From contig OZ287067.1 in NCBI GenBank assembly GCA_965645245.1, positions 2,790,001 to 2,854,000 on the forward strand: 64,000 nucleotides of DNA, given 5' to 3'. Positions 4,577 to 57,143 of the stretch are shown piece by piece. Both the position numbers and the translations under genes were made by a program. Within the stretch, counting starts at the first letter, position 1, and every line of letters begins with the position of its first letter. The stretch is from Massalongia carnosa (lineage: Eukaryota). Under the pieces are notes generated by a model. It made no database searches and was not told the origin of the DNA. It worked only from the letters and a program-made list of their open reading frames with translations.

Positions 4577-5499
4577 TTGCTCCGCCTGCCACAAGAGATT
4601 CGATCAATGATCTATGACTATGTTCTTGGTGGCGAAATAATCCATAACATCTACAATAGCCATGTATATGACGATATTGGGCTGGCGAGGTTGAGGCTAA
4701 GTTACAAGGGAGCGGACTCTCTTACCACCTCTGTGTGTGTGAAGATTTTAGCCTGCCTCAATGCGAAGATACTCGTGACAAAGTACTAAAAGGGTACAAC
4801 CAAGAGCGTGTGAAATCTACCGCGTCTATCATCGTTTTGACGAACTGGCGGAATATGATGTCCCTGATACATGGCTTGGGCATTACAGATGTCTGCTCCC
4901 CGACAATAAGGCAAAACTCAGCATGGCTCTTATAGAGACTTGCAAGCAGACCTACCAGGAAGCAAGTCTCATACCATATCAGAAAAAACACTGTCTTTCA
5001 ATGACCCGTAGGCATTGAAGCTTTTTGTTAAGGGCCGGCATGGGGTCGATCGCTACTACCTTCAAGCCAGACTTGATGCAGTTCGAAGTCTTCCGTTGCA
5101 TGCCAAATATCCTGAGCGGTTCCGAATTGATTTATGGAATATCGTTAGTCGCTTCGCGGCTCCTCGACTTGAAAAGCTAGAGATACTCACCATCTGTATT
5201 GACTTAGTATTTCATGACTAAGGGGTAAACTTGAGGTGCATAAAGCAAGAAAGCAGGAAAGCAAGAAAGCAAGAAAGCAAGAAAGGAAGAAGACTCCATT
5301 TCCGGCTTTCTGTTGTTATTCACCAATCAAGACTTTAACGGTAGACGTTATTGCCCCTTCACTCGCTGCTTCTAGCATTGATGAGTTACAACGCTGCCGC
5401 AGGTGGAAAGTCGAAGAGAGGCTGAAACTTGCGAATTTCGTTTCTAGCGACATCATGGCTAAGGAAACCAGTCAGATAAAGTCAAGACCTAGGTTTTAG
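4577..5499 (+). pseudogene. Decayed F-box-like fungal hypothetical gene
   Basis: LLRLPQEIRSMIYDYVLGG and, in another frame, MALIETCKQTYQEASLIPY. Broken by frameshifts and stops and contains a microsatellite. Confidence 0.55.
5242..5290. repeat. (GCAAGAAA)n 8-bp tandem repeat, about 6 imperfect units
   Basis: aaagcaagaaagcaggaaagcaagaaagcaagaaagcaagaaaggaaga. Confidence 0.85.
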
Positions 5500-6201
5500 T
5501 ATTATTTACGTTGAGAAGAGCTTCTTGGTCATAGTCTAATGTTCAACAACAACAAGAACAATAACCACCATCATCGCTACAACTCCTGCGCTTCAAATCA
5601 CTTCTAAAGGTAACTTGGCTGAGCCATGAGATGCCGCTTTGGAAAAGTAATATATGACTGTAGTAAAGACATGAGAATAATTTCTGGATCAATCCAAGCG
5701 TAGAAAGGGATTAGAATTTGCCCTTGCTAATATGAGCACATTACGCTAAGGAATCAAAATACATAGTTCTGAGGAGGCAAGCCTTCTCTAGTAGGAGCTG
5801 GAGAATAAAGGCCTTTAGAGAAATACAGGCAGAAGTTTAACAACCATACCTTTCAAGATCTCCTCTACCCCAGTCGCAAATCTGGCCTCCGTCCAATAAT
5901 TAGCAGCTATTTGTGAGCATGGCTTCATTCTCTGAGGCTAAATTCCACATTTCTAAGTTTAAAATGTCCAGTCATGTGTACCGTATAGCGAGAAATGATG
6001 TCGGCGTGAGGAATTGTAGTTGGAGGTGCTCGCTCGATGAGTGATCCAAACGGCGCTGATGCAACGAGTAAACAAATATGTATCCTAATAAAGTTGGCTA
6101 CGTTAGAAGCGGTCAAGATATAGGCTGAATTGCCGTCTATAGAGATAATCATTCAAACGCCCCGCACACCACGTATGTTACATTGCGGTGTCGAAGTTCC
6201 A

Positions 6202-46687: not shown

Positions 46688-47593
46688 TCAGCCAAGAACC
46701 TGAAGGACAATTTTACCTGTGCTACGCCCTTTCGCCAAGAGCTCAAACGCTGCCGCTCCTTCCTCGAGCGGAAATATCTGGTCTACCACCGGCTTGATCT
46801 TCCCCTCTTCAATTAGCCTACCGATCGTACTGAGTTGGTCTCCATTCGACTTAACGACAAAATAACTAGACCGCAGACCAGGAAACCGCTTCTTGCTCTC
46901 CTCCTTCAACGGTTCCGCCACGCTCACTATGATCCCTCCTTCTGCGGTGCATTTCCACCCGCCTTCCTGAGTATCGCCGCCTACACAGTCCAGTACAATG
47001 TGGAATCTTCCTTCTACCTTGTTTTTCGTATAATCAACAACCTCGCTAGCTCCCAGACCCTCCACCAACCCAGCCTTTCCTCCAGAGCAAGTCCCCACAA
47101 CCCTTGCGCCCTTCCACCTTGCTAGTTGTACCGCCATCGTCCCAACGCCTCCTGCTGCTCCAAGGACTAAGACGGACTGACCTGCCTCCAAAGAAGCATG
47201 CACAAACAGCGCTTGCCAAGCCGTTAGCGTAGACAATGGCACCGCAGCCGCCTGGCTGTGATTTAGAGTCCTCGGCTTCGGCGCTAGCTCATACGGCTCA
47301 GCGAGCACGAACTCGGCAGCAGCGCCATCGCGAGAGAATGAGATGAGGGCGAAAACCGTGTCGCCAATGTGGAGCTCTGTGGAACCCTCAGCGGGAACAG
47401 CCACAACAGTACCCGACACATCATGGCCCGGAACTGCAAGGGGACGCTTTGTCGTTTCGGTCCAGGTGAGCTCGTTGGCGGTGATGGCGGTGGCATGGAC
47501 ACGGATAAGGACTTGGGTTGGAGAGGGAGTAGGGTATGGGGCTGTGGAGGAGAAGGAAATGGTCGCGCTGGGCTCAAGCTGGAGGCATCTCAT
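46688..47593 (-). CDS. MDR-family NADPH:quinone oxidoreductase / zinc-type ADH-like protein
   Basis: PGHDVSGTV, AAAVPLSTLTAWQAL, Rossmann motif VLGAAGGVG and GKIVL. Confidence 0.9.
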   Translation of the reverse strand: MRCLQLEPSATISFSSTAPYPTPSPTQVLIRVHATAITANELTWTETTKRPLAVPGHDVSGTVVAVPAEGSTELHIGDTVFALISFSRDGAAAEFVLAEPYELAPKPRTLNHSQAAAVPLSTLTAWQALFVHASLEAGQSVLVLGAAGGVGTMAVQLARWKGARVVGTCSGGKAGLVEGLGASEVVDYTKNKVEGRFHIVLDCVGGDTQEGGWKCTAEGGIIVSVAEPLKEESKKRFPGLRSSYFVVKSNGDQLSTIGRLIEEGKIKPVVDQIFPLEEGAAAFELLAKGRSTGKIVLQVLG

Positions 47594-48898
47594 TATTTAT
47601 TGTTTGTGTGACAGCAATTTCCAAAATGCAAGCGACGTTCAAATCTATGGAAAGGGATGTGAAGTTTGGAATGAAAGAAATGGAGAGGTTGACTCAGCTT
47701 CCTGCATAACAAGGTTGGTGCTATATGTGGAAAGGTACCCAAGTGGTAAGTATAGAGCACTGAAAATTGAGCACTGGGTACCTATGCGGACCTCATCGGC
47801 ATTCCTGCATCAAATTCTGGCGGAACAAGCCGTAGGGAAGCATGGGAATGCAAACAGAACCATTCTTGTCCTTTCTAACTCCCGTTTCTCCGCAGCTAGT
47901 TCAACCAAGGAGTTTCACTTTATCTTTGTTAAAGCTCGAGGTATTCTCCTAAGAAAAGTCCTGCTACGTGATTGAATGCGCTGCTGACGATACAAATCAA
48001 TACAAATCCAGCGTCTTCAGAGCCGCAGAAGCTTTGAATTTTGATCTCTTCAAAGCCCTGTATCATTAAGCTCTAGAAGAGCGACGAATCAATTCGAAAC
48101 TCATTGCGTGAAGCTTCTTTCCTCGAGGTTTGACTCGCTTCTGCAACTACGCGTGCGTTACTTTGGGCTTGAGTTGCTTTGAGAACTCTAGCTATGGGTC
48201 AAGAAATGACTGTCTTGTATCTCTGCGCTCATAGTTCTCTAAGGCTATGAAGCTCAAGGCTTAGAATCATCGACGGAGCTTTGTATTTCTGCACTGACGA
48301 CTTTGCCTATGCTGGGTCGATCATATAATGACGACCATGTGCAGCCTAACTTCCTCAAAAGGGGGAAGTGCTGAGTTATAGTAGGTTACCTTCAATCATG
48401 TAAGAAAGCGAATAATCTCATTTGTGGGCGGGAATCTCCAGTTTTCTTGGTAGATGAAGAAAGTTTAACTAGATATGCTAAGCTTCCTCCTTAACTATGG
48501 GCAGTGATTGCTAATAATTTCGGACTGGTGATGGGAAAAGGAACAAGACTTCACAAGCCGTGCGATATGATCACATTCACAAGCCGTGCGATATGCTGTC
48601 GTCCCATACCCGCGTGATAAGAATCAAGGAGTTTCAGGCTTATGAAACGCTTGGCAAAACATTCCAATACGTGTTGTTATTTTGCATCCGACACGTTGGA
48701 AAGAGGCTATTGCGTCAGGCAGTATTCGAGGTTGACTATCATCAATCCCAGCTAAGCAAGCCTCCTTCTAGCCCTGAGCAGAGAATGTAGCTATTGGGGA
48801 TATATAATGTAAAATACCCACCGCATCCCTCTACACCAGCTATTTAAACCACTACTCACAGATAAGTATTCATCTCAAACACTCTGATTCTCTATCTT

Positions 48899-49552
48899 AT
48901 GCATCACGTTGTTTATTACTTTTTGATCGGTCTGGCCTTGGTTACTTCGGCACCTGTCAGCGATTCAACATTTCCTTTCAACCCAGAGGCCTTCACGGTC
49001 AATTCTGCCGATATCTCTAGCGCCAACCCCGGGTCTACATCGACTAATGAGAATGCTGGACCACCTTCAGCCCCAAATTCTATCGCTATGGATACTGGCA
49101 ACGTGAACTCTGCTTTCAATGGCAAGACTGCCCTCTCCAGCAACCCTAATCCCCAACCATGCGAGTCAACGCCAACTGGATGTTCCTCCGAATCTAGTTA
49201 TCTTGCGGATGACAACTTACCCGATCAACTACCAAGTAGTTTTACCGCCAGGCCTCCGTTCGTGGTAGGAGATACAGCTGAATGTAATCGGAGAACCAAC
49301 AAATGCATGATCTGCTCCGTAGGATACCAATGCTATGAGATGTTGGCGTTGTGCGAAGAGGGAACAATATGCACAATGTGCGATTTGGTTAATCAAGCAT
49401 GCTGGCCAAGGGAGGTGGACATCTCGAAATTGCCATCCAAAGAAAATCCAGAATGCCAGCCCTGGGCAGAGGGGTGTCAAAAATTGCCTCAACAAGCAAA
49501 GCCTGCGGAACCTGAAAAAACCTGCATACCGCTAACCCCCATTTGCTGGTAG
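48899..49552 (+). CDS. Small secreted Cys-rich protein (effector-like), 217 aa
   Basis: Signal-peptide-like MHHVVYYFLIGLALVTSAP, a Ser/Pro/Asn-rich linker and 14 Cys. TATA-like elements near 48801 and 48841. Confidence 0.7.
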   Translation: MHHVVYYFLIGLALVTSAPVSDSTFPFNPEAFTVNSADISSANPGSTSTNENAGPPSAPNSIAMDTGNVNSAFNGKTALSSNPNPQPCESTPTGCSSESSYLADDNLPDQLPSSFTARPPFVVGDTAECNRRTNKCMICSVGYQCYEMLALCEEGTICTMCDLVNQACWPREVDISKLPSKENPECQPWAEGCQKLPQQAKPAEPEKTCIPLTPICW

Positions 49553-50625
49553 AAGGTACCGAAGAGGAAGTTTGAGATTATCTTGGAATCTTCAACTCCA
49601 TAAGAACCAGAAGATCGATGCACATAGCTGGGGGGACCACAGTAGGACGCAGGGCCAAGACATATTCAAAAGGTTGCGTTTTGCTAGCTGATGCGTTATG
49701 GATGGGTGTCTATTTTCCAATAAGGTTCGATTTCGCTCGTGGGCGCTCTGTCGGAGAAGTGGACTATGGTGAACCTTCAATCCATCAAGCTCTTCATAGT
49801 ACATCAATGAGACATTAGCGACCCAATGCCTCGACCATCCTACCCTCGCGCCCTAAACCCATCCATACGTGTTTTTCCCACCGGATTATTTCTCAAAGCA
49901 TCCCTGCGCATTACTTCCCCACGTTCCCTCGAAAGTTTTTTTTCTCATCAACCTCAACCCTCAGGAGATCCACCGAGTGGGTAATTGACCGCAGCTCTAA
50001 GAGCTTCGGAGCAGGTAATTTATATTTAGCCCCCTTACCGAGTTTGAACGCACGCAAATATCTAAATGAACCGAAGCAAAGACAAATCAATGATGAAATG
50101 AAGAAGAGACTTTAAAAACAAAACGAATTCAAATGAAAGCCGTCGCAATTGAACGGAATACTGGATGAAAGACGTGGACTAACATGTCATGTGACATTGG
50201 CGAATCCTTGTCTTGATACTAGTGCGTAGAGTACGTCATTATCTATTGTTCTGCAAGTCTTCCCGTCTTTTGTTCGGATCAAACACCGTGGGGTCTTGTC
50301 GAATAACGCAAGTCAAACGCCGGCCGTGTTTCAAGAGTTGTTCCGATGAACTTGGCTTTTCGGACCCACAGGGTGCCAACTTATCCATCCCTGCGGCTAT
50401 CCCGCTGCCGGGATGATCGACTTTCCACAAGCTCATACAGGAGTCGGTTTCTTGCGAAGGGTTTTCATAGACCACGTGGTTTTTTTGGAAATTACAAACG
50501 AGAGACTTTAGATGGACATGCACTACGGATGATGCTATTTTGTTCCATCTCCATAGCCTGACGCTGCACAAGCAGGATTAGGTTTAAGGATTGGACTACT
50601 CTTCTTGGGGTTGAACGGCCAGTTA

Positions 50626-52792
50626 TCCCTCTCGCTGTCATTCTAGCACCCCCCTCCCAAGCTAATCTATATTGGACTAGCTTCCGCACCGATGAGTCAT
50701 CAGAACATTAGTTTTCTCTAGAGTGTTTGCGCGTTTGTTTACTTTTCAAAGAATACTATTCGGTCATTCAATCAAAATAAATCACATAAATTACTATTCT
50801 TCTAGCTTCGGAATTGATATTATAAGTATGACGCTCAATGAAGAAGAAATCCCGAGTGTATCAGACAAATCTCCCATTTCAGCGAAGCAACATAAAATAA
50901 ATCGCAAAAGAAGTGTTCGGGATATTTTAATCGACCTTCCCCCTATTTCCTCAAAATATACCCCCATTCGGGTTGAAAACAGGCCTTTTGTTCCGCTCGT
51001 TGAAAACGATTCTCGAAATCCTTTGGGATTATTTCGGTTATTTATAACAAGGCAGCATTGTCGTATCATCGCAAATCATACCAATATCAAGGCAAATAAC
51101 TACATGGAAAAGGAGAAGGAGAACAATCATCGGGTTTGGACTGACACTACTGACTCGGAAATTGAGGTTTTTTTGGGCATATTAATTCTTATGGGACTCG
51201 ATCATCTACCTGCTACAGAGGATTATTGGAATCAACGTCCTGACAAACCAGTTATCATGCCTATTCTGTCCGCGATGTCGCTTGGTCGATTTCAACAAAT
51301 CAAACGATTTTTGAAAATCAATAATGGACAGACTGAGCCTATCGGACTTGGTCAAGGACCTGATTGGTGGAAGAAACTGGAACCGTTGGCTACTGATTTC
51401 CGAAAGACTTCATTGAAACATTGCAGACCAGGAAGTATGATATCTATAGATGAACAGCTGGTGTTATTCAAGGGCCGTTCTCGACATACCTTGCAGATTA
51501 CTACAAAAAGTGCCCATAAAGGATTTAAAATCTACAGTCTCTGTCAGGATAATTATCTGTTGTCATTTATGTTTGCCTCGAAGAGTAGCAGAATAAGTGA
51601 ATTGAAAACAGTCAGACAATTGGGATTTTTGCCAAAAGATAAACTAACTCCTAGTGCTTTGTAGTGATTCAGTTATGTAAAGAACTTCCATCCTCACTGA
51701 ATTATCATCTTTTCTGTGATAATTTCTTTACTAGTACGAAATTATTCAAGGCACTTCGATCAATCGGAATAGCTGCCAGTGGAACTGCTAAAAAGGGCTC
51801 GGGCTTTCCAGAAGAATTGTTGGCCATACGGGACGTCACTTCAAAAGGAAAAGACTGGGGTCTTCAGGCCCATATGGTGGTCGACGATAAGGTGCTTTGT
51901 ATGGGCTGGGTGGATAATAATGGTGTGCAGTACATGACCACCGGTCATTCTCCTCAGGACTTGTACGAAATGCACTATATAAATCCGCACAAGAGATATG
52001 GAATTCCCGAGACCTCTCTTCAACCTATTGTATCGTATTTCCCATCAACTCTGGCTCACTCCATTCCCTTGCTCAATCAAGAGGTTCAACGGCCCTTAGG
52101 ATTACCGATACCAGCCCCAATCAAAGAATATAATCTTCATATGGGGGGATCGGATGGAAACGCTCAGCAGCGAGCGATTTACTCATACAATCGTCGAACG
52201 GATCGTTACTGGTGGCCTTTGTTCATTTTTATTTTAGATGCAGCCGGATTGAATGCCTATAAACTTTACTCGCTGAACTCTTTCGATTCCGAGGAGATAA
52301 AATTTACTCGTTCTGAATTTCTTCGTCGGATTGCTCTTGAACTGATATCAAATCAAGCGGGCATCAGGCCCGGCTCATCAAAGATAAGCATCAATACCAC
52401 GATTGATGCTTTAGTACCATCTCCCATTCATCATTACGTTCGTCTTGAAGGCAGAAAAAGATGTGTGCAATGTAACGCCGAGAAAAAACGACCTTCAAAG
52501 CGGAAGGGAGAGCCACTGGCTGAAATAAGTGTCGATGGGCGTAAAAGAAGGCGAAGGGGTGCTCAGACTATATGGGCTTGTGGAGGATGTAATCCAATCA
52601 GGCCCTGCTGTAAGAAAGCCAGCTGTTGGGAAGCTATTCATATGATAGGGGACGAGTAAATAGGTATCTGATACTCCGTACAACTTCTTGTGAATAGGAA
52701 TAACATTGATTGGTCAAAAGTTTAAGGTTTAGCGCTTTCTAACCAACAATGGTTTAGCTTGGGGGGGGGTGCTAGAATGACAGCGAGAGGGA
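50626..52792 (+). mobile_element. piggyBac-superfamily DNA transposon, copy 1 (2167 bp, about 39-40 bp TIRs, flanked by TA)
   Basis: TIR TCCCTCTCGCTGTCATTCTAGCACCCCCC(T)CCCAAGCTAA at both ends. TA at 50624-25 and 52793-94. Confidence 0.93.
50828..52659 (+). CDS. piggyBac transposase (DDE_Tnp_1_7-like), split by a frameshift near 51660
   Basis: MSLGRFQQIKRFL, SIDEQLVLFKGRS, GFKIY, CDNFFTS, WVDN, YNLHMGGSD, YWWPLF and a C-terminal Cys-rich domain with a KRRRR NLS. Confidence 0.88.
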
Positions 52793-52815
52793 TATCGTTT
52801 ACGAATAACCGCCTA

Positions 52816-54982
52816 TCCCTCTCGCTGTCATTCTAGCACCCCCCCCCAAGCTAAACCATTGTTGGTTAGAAAGCGCTAAACCTTAAACTTTTGACCAATC
52901 AATGTTATTCCTATTCACAAGAAGTTGTACGGAGTATCAGATACCTATTTACTCGTCCCCTATCATATGAATAGCTTCCCAACAGCTGGCTTTCTTACAG
53001 CAGGGCCTGATTGGATTACATCCTCCACAAGCCCATATAGTCTGAGCACCCCTTCGCCTTCTTTTACGCCCATCGACACTTATTTCAGCCAGTGGCTCTC
53101 CCTTCCGCTTTGAAGGTCGTTTTTTCTCGGCGTTACATTGCACACATCTTTTTCTGCCTTCAAGACGAACGTAATGATGAATGGGAGATGGTACTAAAGC
53201 ATCAATCGTGGTATTGATGCTTATCTTTGATGAGCCGGGCCTGATGCCCGCTTGATTTGATATCAGTTCAAGAGCAATCCGACGAAGAAATTCAGAACGA
53301 GTAAATTTTATCTCCTCGGAATCGAAAGAGTTCAGCGAGTAAAGTTTATAGGCATTCAATCCGGCTGCATCTAAAATAAAAATGAACAAAGGCCACCAGT
53401 AACGATCCGTTCGACGATTGTATGAGTAAATCGCTCGCTGCTGAGCGTTTCCATCCGATCCCCCCATATGAAGATTATATTCTTTGATTGGGGCTGGTAT
53501 CGGTAATCCTAAGGGCCGTTGAACCTCTTGATTGAGCAAGGGAATGGAGTGAGCCAGAGTTGATGGGAAATACGATACAATAGGTTGAAGAGAGGTCTCG
53601 GGAATTCCATATCTCTTGTGCGGATTTATATAGTGCATTTCGTACAAGTCCTGAGGAGAATGACCGGTGGTCATGTACTGCACACCATTATTATCCACCC
53701 AGCCCATACAAAGCACCTTATCGTCGACCACCATATGGGCCTGAAGACCCCAGTCTTTTCCTTTTGAAGTGACGTCCCGTATGGCCAACAATTCTTCTGG
53801 AAAGCCCGAGCCCTTTTTAGCAGTTCCACTGGCAGCTATTCCGATTGATCGAAGTGCCTTGAATAATTTCGTACTAGTAAAGAAATTATCACAGAAAAGA
53901 TGATAATTCAGTGAGGATGGAAGTTCTTTACATAACTGAATCACTACAAAGCACTAGGAGTTAGTTTATCTTTTGGCAAAAATCCCAATTGTCTGACTGT
54001 TTTCAATTCACTTATTCTGCTACTCTTCGAGGCAAACATAAATGACAACAGATAATTATCCTGACAGAGACTGTAGATTTTAAATCCTTTATGGGCACTT
54101 TTTGTAGTAATCTGCAAGGTATGTCGAGAACGGCCCTTGAATAACACCAGCTGTTCATCTATAGATATCATACTTCCTGGTCTGCAATGTTTCAATGAAG
54201 TCTTTCGGAAATCAGTAGCCAACGGTTCCAGTTTCTTCCACCAATCAGGTCCTTGACCAAGTCCGATAGGCTCAGTCTGTCCATTATTGATTTTCAAAAA
54301 TCGTTTGATTTGTTGAAATCGACCAAGCGACATCGCGGACAGAATAGGCATGATAACTGGTTTGTCAGGACGTTGATTCCAATAATCCTCTGTAGCAGGT
54401 AGATGATCGAGTCCCATAAGAATTAATATGCCCAAAAAAACCTCAATTTCCGAGTCAGTAGTGTCAGTCCAAACCCGATGATTGTTCTCCTTCTCCTTTT
54501 CCATGTAGTTATTTGCCTTGATATTGGTATGATTTGCGATGATACGACAATGCTGCCTTGTTATAAATAACCGAAATAATCCCAAAGGATTTCGAGAATC
54601 GTTTTCAACGAGCGGAACAAAAGGCCTGTTTTCAACCCGAATGGGGGTATATTTTGAGGAAATAGGGGGAAGGTCGATTAAAATATCCCGAACACTTCTT
54701 TTGCGATTTATTTTATGTTGCTTCGCTGAAATGGGAGATTTGTCTGATACACTCGGGATTTCTTCTTCATTGAGCGTCATACTTATAATATCAATTCCGA
54801 AGCTAGAAGAATAGTAATTTATGTGATTTATTTTGATTGAATGACCGAATAGTATTCTTTGAAAAGTAAACAAACGCGCAAACACTCTAGAGAAAACTAA
54901 TGTTCTGATGACTCATCGGTGCGGAAGCTAGTCCAATATAGATTAGCTTGGGAGGGGGGTGCTAGAATGACAGCGAGAGGGA
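52816..54982 (-). mobile_element. piggyBac-superfamily DNA transposon, copy 2 (inverted, apparently identical to copy 1, flanked by TA)
   Basis: Mirror image of copy 1 (paired coordinates sum to 105608) with identical translated ORFs. TA at 52814-15 and 54983-84. Confidence 0.93.
52949..54780 (-). CDS. piggyBac transposase, copy 2, with the same frameshift
   Basis: ORF-track proteins are identical to those of copy 1. Confidence 0.88.
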
Positions 54983-55084
54983 TAGCTTGCGATAACGCTG
55001 TTCGCGCTTCGCGCAAAGCCACTGGGCAGAGGCTCTGATGACCGGGAAACACCCATGGCAGTATCAACTATTCAGATGGCTCAG

Positions 55085-55520
55085 TATCGATTAGAAGCAC
55101 TCATTTGGCGACAGCTGCGATGCAGCTCATACTGGAAGTGGTTGCTGCTAAATGGAGTCTCTATATTCTTCACATGCATCGCTACATTGCGTCCCTAGAC
55201 GAACGCATCTATGACCAACCCGCCAATGACATGCACACTATTATGTTATGGAGCATATCAAAGCAAACATTACCGGCTGGAAGCCTTCTCAGATTTCATA
55301 TCCTGTTGTCGGGACATGTACAGAATGGTTTAATGGTGATGCTGGAGACTGGCTTCGTCAGAACCTCGATGAGTTTACAAAGCCGAGCAAGCAGCGAGGT
55401 AGAAGAGACGCTAAAAAATATACAGCACATATGGTGGATCTCTCGGTACATATACACATACATGCCCTCGACGAACAAAGCTGGCCTTGCAAAACGGAAG
55501 CGATCTGTTGGGTAGATACT
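55085..55520 (+). pseudogene. Decayed fragment resembling fungal CorA-like Mg2+ transporter proteins
   Basis: KWSLYILHMHRYIASLDERIYDQPAND...LW resembles the LE..IYEQPADE..A.ELW segment I recall from fungal CorA-like proteins. Frameshifted and lacking TM helices. Confidence 0.4.
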
Positions 55521-56507
55521 CATCTTTCTTAGCATCCTATCCTGGAATCCCAATCCACCAACTCAAAACAGCACCTCTTCCCCGGCACCCTTCGTGATCA
55601 ACTACCTAACCAGCAAGGGTTGAGTAGGAAACCCCACACACCAAAAAGAAAGAAAGAAAGAAAACGCCACGAAATCGCCAAAACCGTCCCGTTTAGCCAA
55701 ACCCACCCAATGATGTTCTTTAGTAGATAACTGTACATAGGAATTCCAAGCCCCGGCACGCCCAATACCATGTTCCTTCATTGCTCCTCATTTGCTTTAC
55801 AGGGTACCGAGGGGGAATCCTAATTTTATGATGGAAGAATGGACGGATGGATAGATAATAGACGGAAGAGACTGACTGTACCGGATTTAGACTCCCCGAG
55901 TCCCCAACTAGAGTAGTTAGGCAGGCTAACTGGAGGCCTTTGATAAGGAGCTCTGATTTGATCGAGAATCGAGATCCGAGATCCGCGCATTCCCATATCG
56001 GGGGGGATGGTTGGGTAAAATCCCCCACGTATTATGTGGATATGCACCTCCTCGTATGCACTTCCTCGTATGTATGTGTGTATGTATGGGGACGGAGTGG
56101 TCCGTATGATGGAAAGCGATAGTGCCACTCTGAAGCACATCGCCAGGATAAACATACCTACCTAATGTGGATTTGTTGGTGGAGATAGATAGATGGATGG
56201 ATGATGGTGGGGCCATCGTTACAAGATATGTATCGTAGTTATGTAAGGAAGCTGCATTCAGCGAAACGGCAAGCAGCAGCAGCAGTAGTAGTAGTAGTAG
56301 CATAAGGGGAGGGGGGGGCCTAGAGGGGGTAAATAGATAGATAGATATGTTAAGTCACTCGACGACACGTATGGAAAGGGGGGCCATCTTCCCAAACCTC
56401 CAAACAAACCCATCCATCGCCACGTACGAGTACATAACCAGCTCTCTTGCACGACTCCACCACACCTACATACCATTCATCCCCATAGGCTGCAGCGGAC
56501 CACGGCC

Positions 56508-57143
56508 ATGAAACCCAATCCATCTCCTTCTCGCCCTGTTTGCCCCTGACGGCGGCAACGGCGGCAGCAGGCGTGCAAGAACTGTTGGTGCAGGATTCCT
56601 CTGGTTCGGTGGAGAGTAAATGTCCCCCTGGTCGAATGTCCTGGCACGGAATCACCAGCTGTACGTACATACAGGACCTTTTCGCTCTCGTTCAGTTCGC
56701 GCCTCTCTCCTCCATCCCATTCCACCCAGCCCCAGTCTAAACCTACAAACAGACCGTCTACTACCACGAAAAACAACCTCATACCACGGTTCGCCAACTA
56801 ACTAAACCTCCTTTCTCTCCACCAAAATTCTAAACCCTCCAAACCAGCATTGCCCCCCCCCCCCCCCCCCCCCCCAATGCCGACGCGCATCCTTTGCGGT
56901 AGCCGCGGTCTCCCTCCCTGCCGCGTGGGCCTGAAATGCGTGCCTAACTCCGAGCATGCTGGCTGCGACCCGGCGCTCGATTGTCCCGGGTTATGCGTCC
57001 GGCTAGACGGGCCTGTCTGCCTTGGGTTTGGGGGCCTGCGGTGCCCCAACAAGGACCAGCACTGCTATATTAGCCGTGCGTGCAACCATCCGGATTGTTC
57101 GGGGACATGCTATTTCCTGGATGGCCGCTCATCGCGGGAGTAG
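56508..57143 (+). CDS. Small secreted Cys-rich protein (frameshifted as given, exon structure uncertain)
   Basis: The last exon has paired CG.RGLPPC / CLGFGGLRCP Cys modules. A signal peptide MKPIHLLLALLPLTAATAAAG is recovered by removing two homopolymer bases. Confidence 0.5.
56853..56875 (+). repeat. Poly-C tract (23 nt) encoding poly-Pro
   Basis: Directly visible C23 run. Confidence 0.9.

Follow-up and report, generated by a model that had tools for sequence, protein, structure and literature searches.

A tail-to-tail pair of piggyBac-superfamily transposons in Massalongia carnosa that probably duplicates TA on insertion

The stretch of Massalongia carnosa DNA analyzed here (64,000 nucleotides of contig OZ287067.1, assembly GCA_965645245.1, forward-strand positions 2,790,001 to 2,854,000; hereafter "the window", in whose own coordinates its positions are given) carries two copies of a transposon that has a piggyBac-type transposase gene and is bounded by TA at every end. 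Specificity for TTAA is described as the hallmark of piggyBac, and as a limit on its use in genome engineering, in the pertinent passages of two papers (PMC13461360; PMC7351741). The locus thus raises the question of which target this element uses, and how much of it is duplicated upon insertion. Our answer, to which we give a probability of about 85%, is that the two are sister copies of a cut-and-paste piggyBac-superfamily transposon that integrates at TA and duplicates just those 2 bp.

The two units lie at 50624-52794 (+ strand) and 52814-54984 (− strand), each 2171 bp long including the flanking TAs, and pairwise comparison finds 0 mismatches between them. They face each other tail to tail across 19 bp of non-palindromic DNA, and their similarity breaks off directly beyond the TA on all four sides. 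The junctions of copy 1 are ccagt-TA-TCCCTC at 50624 and GAGGGA-TA-tcgtt at 52794, and those of copy 2 are ccgcc-TA-TCCCTC at 52814 and GAGGGA-TA-gcttg at 54984. An earlier note on this DNA had quoted these four junctions and remarked that none is TTAA; on re-reading, the quotation is correct to the base and TTAA is present at 0/4. If CCC and GGG are taken as the ends, the flanking 4-mers become TTAT/ATAT and CTAT/ATAG, which, as the same note said and we confirm, are not direct repeats. The terminal inverted repeats (TIRs) of one copy match at 39/40 nt, with one gap in the C run. When as many as 3 mismatches are tolerated, the terminal 23-nt motif is found four times in the window and 0 times in 100 shuffles, and no further copies or fragments of the element are present in the 64-kb window. 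The parts of the pair, with the evidence for each in brackets, are:

50624-50625, no strand: TA, 5′ flank of copy 1, half of the proposed 2-bp target-site duplication (TSD) (end of inter-copy identity; TSD reading from relatives)
50626-52792, + strand: copy 1 proper, TCCC...GGGA, 2167 bp (copy comparison)
50626-50665, + strand: 5′ TIR, 40 nt (match to 3′ TIR)
52754-52792, − strand: 3′ TIR of copy 1, 39 nt (match to 5′ TIR)
52793-52794, no strand: TA, 3′ flank of copy 1 (junction reading)
52795-52813, no strand: spacer of host DNA, 19 bp, not palindromic (copy comparison)
52814-52815, no strand: TA, 3′ flank of copy 2 (junctions; alignments of five contigs from other insertions start at 52814)
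52816-54982, − strand: copy 2 proper, identical to copy 1 including its frameshift (copy comparison)
54983-54984, no strand: TA, 5′ flank of copy 2 (junction reading)

Five public runs from three studies contain the stretch: a lichen metagenome (X1), three runs of organism A (X2-X4) and one of organism B (X5). Window positions 48600-52850 were compared with the contigs of X1, X2, X4 and X5, and in two of these runs a contig continues from the left flank into the element without a single difference (X2 record 9 corresponds to 48600-50652 and X4 record 19 to 49222-50649). Because the compared stretch is 48600-52850, the inverted arrangement, the spacer and the right junction are as given by the assembly alone. 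The tail-to-tail pair might thus be a palindromic mis-join, with one real copy at the locus; the arms are 100% identical, inverted and separated by a very short spacer, a pattern that can result from long-read mis-assembly. We consider such a mis-join unlikely, and it would in any case leave the TA question unaffected. A fold-back artefact would copy the flank too, whereas both outer flanks and the 19-bp spacer differ and the spacer is not a palindrome; in addition, contigs from two runs span the left junction, and X2 contains 0.97 of the sampled words of 48600-57000.

Since TA reads the same on both strands, a TSD and the tip of a TIR look alike at the four window junctions, and relatives were therefore examined. 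A search of JGI metagenome contigs with a four-sequence protein alignment (A1, proteins P0001-P0004) gave 73 loci, which were scanned for inverted repeats around the transposase matches and their ends inspected. There are 18 two-ended insertions in the resulting set, the 2 in the window and 16 independent ones from metagenomes; the latter comprise several TIR families, the proteins of which are 25-46% identical to the query in amino acid (aa) sequence. All 18 read N-TA-TCC(C/A)...(G/T)GGA-TA-N, one of them with changes like those of repeat-induced point mutation (RIP), as TATTTC...GAAATA. TTAA flanks occur in 0/18, and the left TA is preceded by G or C in 14/18. Beyond the TA, direct repeats of 1 bp are found in 5/18 (4.5 are expected by chance) and of 2-6 bp in 0/18. 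A conserved T/A sets CCC/GGG off from the TA in 17/18 sites (the remaining one, L018, has TCCA), and the CCC...GGG ends, unlike those of canonical piggyBac, do not directly abut the duplication. The same search also returned an element on an environmental contig (L064, 112-2558; 23% identity; 2447 bp including the TTAAs) that reads TTAA-CCCTC...GGG-TTAA, so the procedure does recognize canonical ends. Tabulation of flanks had been proposed in the earlier note, and when run on these insertions it gives TA on both sides at 18/18 and true 4-bp TSDs at 0/18.

Two other registers for the duplication were tried and fail: a 4-bp NTAN at nearly every site in the 18-site table, and a 3-bp TAT at window copy 2 (TAT against TAG), at L001 and at others. 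Within the window's own family, five contigs of other insertions (two from X1 and three from X5) align from the T of the TA at 52814 and have unrelated sequence before it.

Sites that can stand in for an unoccupied target were sought through paralogues of the flanks. The window itself contains none for the flanks of its pair, and when 22 flank pairs were BLASTed against all loci, paralogues were found for L033/L054 alone. The element of L033, which is the same insertion as that of L054, sits inside a 205-bp tandem array. Its occupied boundary reads ...gtgtgtgtgacg-TA-[TTTC...GAAA]-TA-tatgagttgc, and the uninterrupted boundaries of the array, one upstream and three downstream, read ...gtgtgtga(t/c)g-TA-tatgag... 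in 4/4 cases. Comparison of the occupied with the 4/4 uninterrupted boundaries therefore gives a net gain of the element core plus exactly 2 bp. The earlier note's reading of TCCC...GGGA termini with a 2-bp TA duplication is thus supported both by the 18/18 insertions and by this array (4/4 boundaries).

The array bears directly on the alternative that TA is the outermost two bases of the TIR (TATCCC...GGGATA) and that insertion duplicates nothing, or too little to be noticed. TA is palindromic and is invariant at 36/36 ends of the 18 insertions, as a conserved tip would be, and the four window junctions are compatible with either reading. A TA that belongs to the element and is not duplicated predicts a gain of core + 4 bp, and is excluded by the core + 2 bp that the L033/L054 array gained in 4/4 comparisons. 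A TSD is also expected on general grounds, as cut-and-paste DDE/DDD transposases, as a rule, make staggered joins. Furthermore, the account of Ti_tr1, a truffle element discussed below, reports in the section concerned a TA TSD from a comparison of idiomorphs with and without the insertion (PMC3864998). The TIR-tip alternative is accordingly quite improbable, and we retain duplication of TA as the explanation of the junctions. That the element is instead a canonical TTAA-duplicating piggyBac with mutated flanks can be dismissed almost entirely: a 2017 survey does, in the part concerned, count the same 4-mers among its rare "TSDs" and put them down to mutation (PMC5381638), but the window copies are identical and the family is young, yet TTAA stands at 0/4 of their flanks and in 0/18 of the clade, the base 5′ of TA is G/C in 14/18, CCC always has a T beside it, and canonical L064 was recognized by the same procedure.

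Several points weigh against integration at TA with a 2-bp duplication. L033 taken by itself is equally compatible with CCC...GGGA ends and a 3-bp duplication of TAT, because the next target base there happens to be T. The empty-site support is drawn from a relative with RIP-like mutations, which has 37% aa identity, and from published work on a different species, and no empty allele of the window family was seen. In two diverged copies in X1 (3-4 gaps in 57-70 aligned nt) the alignment ends short of the TA, at 52790 and 52792, and the loose letters of the first of them begin ATG..., so a clean GGGA-TA is not universal for old copies among the entries listed. The inverted pair itself is given by the assembly and not by reads, and a stagger of 2 bp, like what becomes of the donor site, is something that we infer.

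Some further observations concern the same loci. The array around the L033 element (2449-2784 and 5292-6123; also in L054) has three units downstream and more upstream. The CCC ends of this element read TTT and its open reading frame (ORF) is full of stops, which is consistent with RIP-like C-to-T mutation. Two other candidates were rejected. Comparison of L012 with L013 as an empty allele of a 220-bp miniature inverted-repeat transposable element fails, as the two contigs diverge at that TA into unrelated sequence. A 225-bp insertion in L059 (6138-6362), which the orthologous L061 and L062 lack, is a mobile element of another kind, with a 6-bp CTCTTT duplication; it starts GTTGGAAACGGGGTACG, which also ends the shared part of L012/L013. 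In L030, the right flank directly after GGGATA (4962-4975) reads TATATCCCACC, which could be an abutting second element or a TATA target. Finally, a related family includes a fold-back deletion derivative, ~1.5-1.7 kb long, which is present as the same insertion in three assemblies (L049 2845-4355, L051 1227-2912 and L053 2821-4506). Both halves of this derivative repeat the 5′ part of the element, one in the opposite orientation to the other (the arms measure 400-520 nt in L049), and its ends are normal TATCCC...GGGATA.

The protein that the element encodes is of piggyBac type. The gene in copy 1 is broken by a frameshift and has the following parts:

50828-51664, + strand: transposase ORF part 1, starting MTLNEEE..., with the first-Asp motif IDEQL at 51446-51460 and TAG at 51662-51664 (PF13843, 3.4e-31)
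51661-51662, + strand: 1-nt deletion relative to the family majority, which elsewhere has a C behind 51661; it breaks the frame (public contigs; intact proteins)
51655-52659, + strand: transposase ORF part 2, with CDNFF at 51715-51729, GSDGN at 52147-52161 and the stop at 52657-52659 (PF13843, 2.9e-17)

The two ORF halves score 109.3 and 63.4 bits against PF13843 (DDE_Tnp_1_7), for which the cut-off is 22.4. Intact family proteins are available for comparison. P0001 (645 aa) is 99% identical to ORF part 1 and continuous across the frameshift site (...PSALLVIQLCKEL), and P0170, of the same protein cluster, has 610 aa and starts MTLNEEE as do the relatives P0002-P0004; the ORF of the element is intron-less, with 610 codons. 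PF13843 matches P0001 at 4.8e-52 (177.8 bits) and P0170 with 180.8 bits, and profile positions 1-349 of 349 are covered. It is the sole Pfam match at E up to 1, and no Tc1/mariner-type transposase was found. Against known structures, P0001 matches Trichoplusia ni piggyBac (6x67) at 5.9e-17 and piggyBat (9c0f) at 8.5e-15, and its IDEQL, CDNFFTS and GGSDGNAQ align with ltIDEQL, CDNWFTS and GGVDTLDQ of 6x67, stretches that we take to be those holding piggyBac D268, D346 and D447. The C-terminal region of ORF part 2 (52462-52641) is rich in Cys and His; C581, C584, C620, C630, C635 and H640 are invariant in alignment A1, and no Pfam zinc-ribbon family matches the transposase C-terminus, even at E up to 1. 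By its sequence, the transposase is a member of the piggyBac superfamily, with a DDD RNase-H-like core. The suggestion of the earlier note that this is a piggyBac lineage with altered target specificity agrees with the PF13843 match, the DDD motifs aligned to 6x67 and the 0/18 count for TTAA. The altered cleavage stagger that the note also proposed would follow from the 2-bp length of the duplication. As the same 1-nt deletion is present in both window copies, neither can make transposase, and their ends are intact.

These features suggest how the pair may have arisen. The window copies would be non-autonomous passengers, mobilized in trans by an intact copy, and in the simplest history one of them would derive from the other by a short-range hop, in opposite orientation, into a second TA 19 bp off. 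The transposase would bind the TIRs, excise the element and join both of its 3′ ends to phosphates that flank the TA of the target with a stagger of 2 bp. By analogy with the piggyBac hairpin mechanism, as set out in part of a published account (PMC7351741), excision may leave a TA overhang of 2 nt on the element's ends, and by analogy with the seamless piggyBac mechanism the donor site would probably be resealed precisely to a single TA. Set beside canonical TTAA-CCC, the NTAT-CCC of this clade would keep the central TA, have the inner base fixed in the element and leave the outer base free. If this is true, the unoccupied double site would read ...CCAGT-TA-TCGTTTACGAATAACCGCC-TA-GCTTGCG....

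The family to which the pair belongs is represented by tens of near-identical copies in the same genome, many with an intact ORF. Contig depth over the element and over its flank is ~6700 against 126 in X2, ~497 against 26 in X1 and ~178 against ~3 in X5; contig depth is no copy number and serves as a rough guide, so we read these values just as "tens of copies". At 90% identity, 56 proteins fall into one cluster, and among the 15 members listed, eight are 607-658 aa long (five of 645 and one of 610), all on contigs of 1.4-3.8 Mb. The extra, frame-restoring C behind 51661 is carried by all contig depth in X1, X2 and X5 and by 27904 of 82270 in X4, a split in depth that does not convert into copy counts. 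Position 52170 is A in all four runs and G in the window, a synonymous difference. The family looks young and is apparently active, and insertion polymorphism between strains is possible within it. In a 39-kb contig of X1 the left flank is matched as far as 50626, after which come 50 letters unlike the element; this contig may be an unoccupied allele, and we count it neither for nor against. An exact scan of the JGI metagenome contigs for the TIR gave 0 matches.

The C/G run inside the TIR (50649-50657 and 52761-52769) differs in length between copies, as it does between left and right TIR, and one base is absent at 50655 and at 52761 in the X1 and X4 contigs.

To place the element among its relatives, a quick maximum-likelihood tree was made from 28 rows (10 ORFs from the loci and 18 database proteins), with a root for drawing alone. 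A branch with 97% support in the Shimodaira-Hasegawa-like approximate likelihood ratio test (SH-aLRT) separates TTAA-flanked L064, the beetle transposase P0006, P0007, L052, L072 and L073 from all six TA-labelled rows. This quick version of the transposase phylogeny that the earlier note had called for thus sets the TTAA element apart from every TA-labelled row, and it is consistent with a single TA clade, though just one tip has a scored TTAA. With ORF part 2 as query, 369 cluster representatives are found at E ≤ 1e-10, which makes the clade a large one. The TA trait is not peculiar to the window family; as judged from the sequences, it is a property of a deep ascomycete piggyBac-like clade with conserved TA-TCCC(T/C)T ends. 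More tentatively, and with more doubt than confidence on our part, an old Pezizomycotina-wide clade may have switched wholesale from TTAA (4 bp) to TA (2 bp) and gone unrecognized in work on the superfamily, which took flanks of this type for mutated TTAA, with the window family as an active member that has an intact 610-aa enzyme.

Comparison with well-studied systems is informative here. The element resembles T. ni piggyBac (6x67/6x68) and canonical elements in its PF13843 domain, its three alignable Asp motifs, its CCC...GGG core, its TIRs, its single ORF and perhaps its Cys-rich C-terminal region, and differs from them in duplicating the 2-bp TA rather than the 4-bp TTAA and in having an extra T/A between the duplication and CCC/GGG. 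With Tc1/mariner it shares the TA target and the TA duplication, whereas its transposase is unrelated and its TCCC... ends differ from those of Tc1/mariner. PiggyMac of Paramecium is a piggyBac-derived nuclease that cuts internal eliminated sequences bounded by a TA on each side and leaves one TA. It is, however, a domesticated host enzyme that only excises, by way of 4-nt overhangs centered on the TA and end joining, whereas here a mobile element integrates.

The nearest parallel is Ti_tr1 of Tuber indicum (Belfiori et al. 2013, PMC3864998, with GenBank entries KF318361-KF318366). According to the sections concerned, it is an insertion of 2351 bp that one strain carries in its MAT1-2 idiomorph and another strain lacks. 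Those sections describe its transposase as PF13843, its TIRs as 52 bp long and its TSD as TA, and its authors left the classification "unclear" (PMC3864998). Like the window element, it is thus an ascomycete element of ~2.2-2.35 kb with a PF13843 transposase, long TIRs (52 bp in Ti_tr1, ~40 bp here) and TA at both ends. The two were compared by published description rather than by sequence, and on that description they differ in host (Pezizomycetes against a Lecanoromycete here), in gene structure (three predicted exons against a continuous ORF) and in number (a single insertion against tens of copies). The caution in the earlier note that novelty needed checking was well placed, since a TA TSD on an ascomycete piggyBac-type element has been in print since 2013 (PMC3864998, in the part concerned); what is added to the truffle case is that every relative examined has the TA-TCCC architecture. 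Besides the Tuber paper, no other statement of a TA-duplicating piggyBac was found in the full-text literature, a search whose coverage does not extend to Repbase and Dfam.

Elements of this kind may already have been met under other descriptions. Bouallegue et al. (2017) surveyed 157 piggyBac-like elements, among them one fungal element with a 50-bp TIR, and the relevant part of their paper gives 13 bp for the TIR of canonical piggyBac, against ~40 bp here (PMC5381638). The same part lists TTAT, ATAT, ATAG and ATAA as rare "TSDs" and explains them by mutation (PMC5381638); these are exactly the NTAT/ATAN 4-mers that the present clade yields when CCC/GGG are taken as the ends. A mining study of 2025, as far as its search is described in the passage concerned, looked for TTAACC with at most 2 mismatches (PMC13461360), a filter that NTATCC would pass unnoticed. 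For Pezizomycotina, PiggyBac has been recorded by Muszewska et al. 2017 (PMC5751038), and for a lichen fungus by an Umbilicaria transposable element study (PMC8773270); the TSD is not mentioned in the passages concerned of either.

A natural clade that combines a piggyBac core with TA duplication bears on how the enzyme measures the stagger and reads its target, and on whether excision stays seamless with a 2-nt overhang. As the family is young, with tens of near-identical copies and intact ORFs, an enzyme and its matching ends are at hand for a direct test; if the reading given here is true, the intact 610-aa protein can be tested as a TA-targeting, possibly seamless, piggyBac. For annotation, pipelines that demand TTAA will mis-bound or misclassify such elements. 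The passages already cited offer precedents for misreading, Ti_tr1 having been left "unclear" (PMC3864998) and similar flanks having been taken as mutated TSDs (PMC5381638).

Two features lie in the left flank. A 26-bp tandem duplication lies at 48550-48601, with units 85% alike; an X1 contig stops aligning at 48613 with loose letters like the 26-bp repeat, and the length of the array may vary between strains. Farther to the left, at 46688-47596 (− strand), is an NADPH:quinone-reductase-like gene whose nearest named relatives are in Lecanoromycetes (Lobaria immixta, 71%), and by these relatives the host is a lichen-forming ascomycete. Below the lichen-forming fungi (49-71% identity) in the ranking of matches, Ktedonobacteria and not other fungi account for many of the proteins that come next (~50%), which may hint at an old bacterial origin of this gene.

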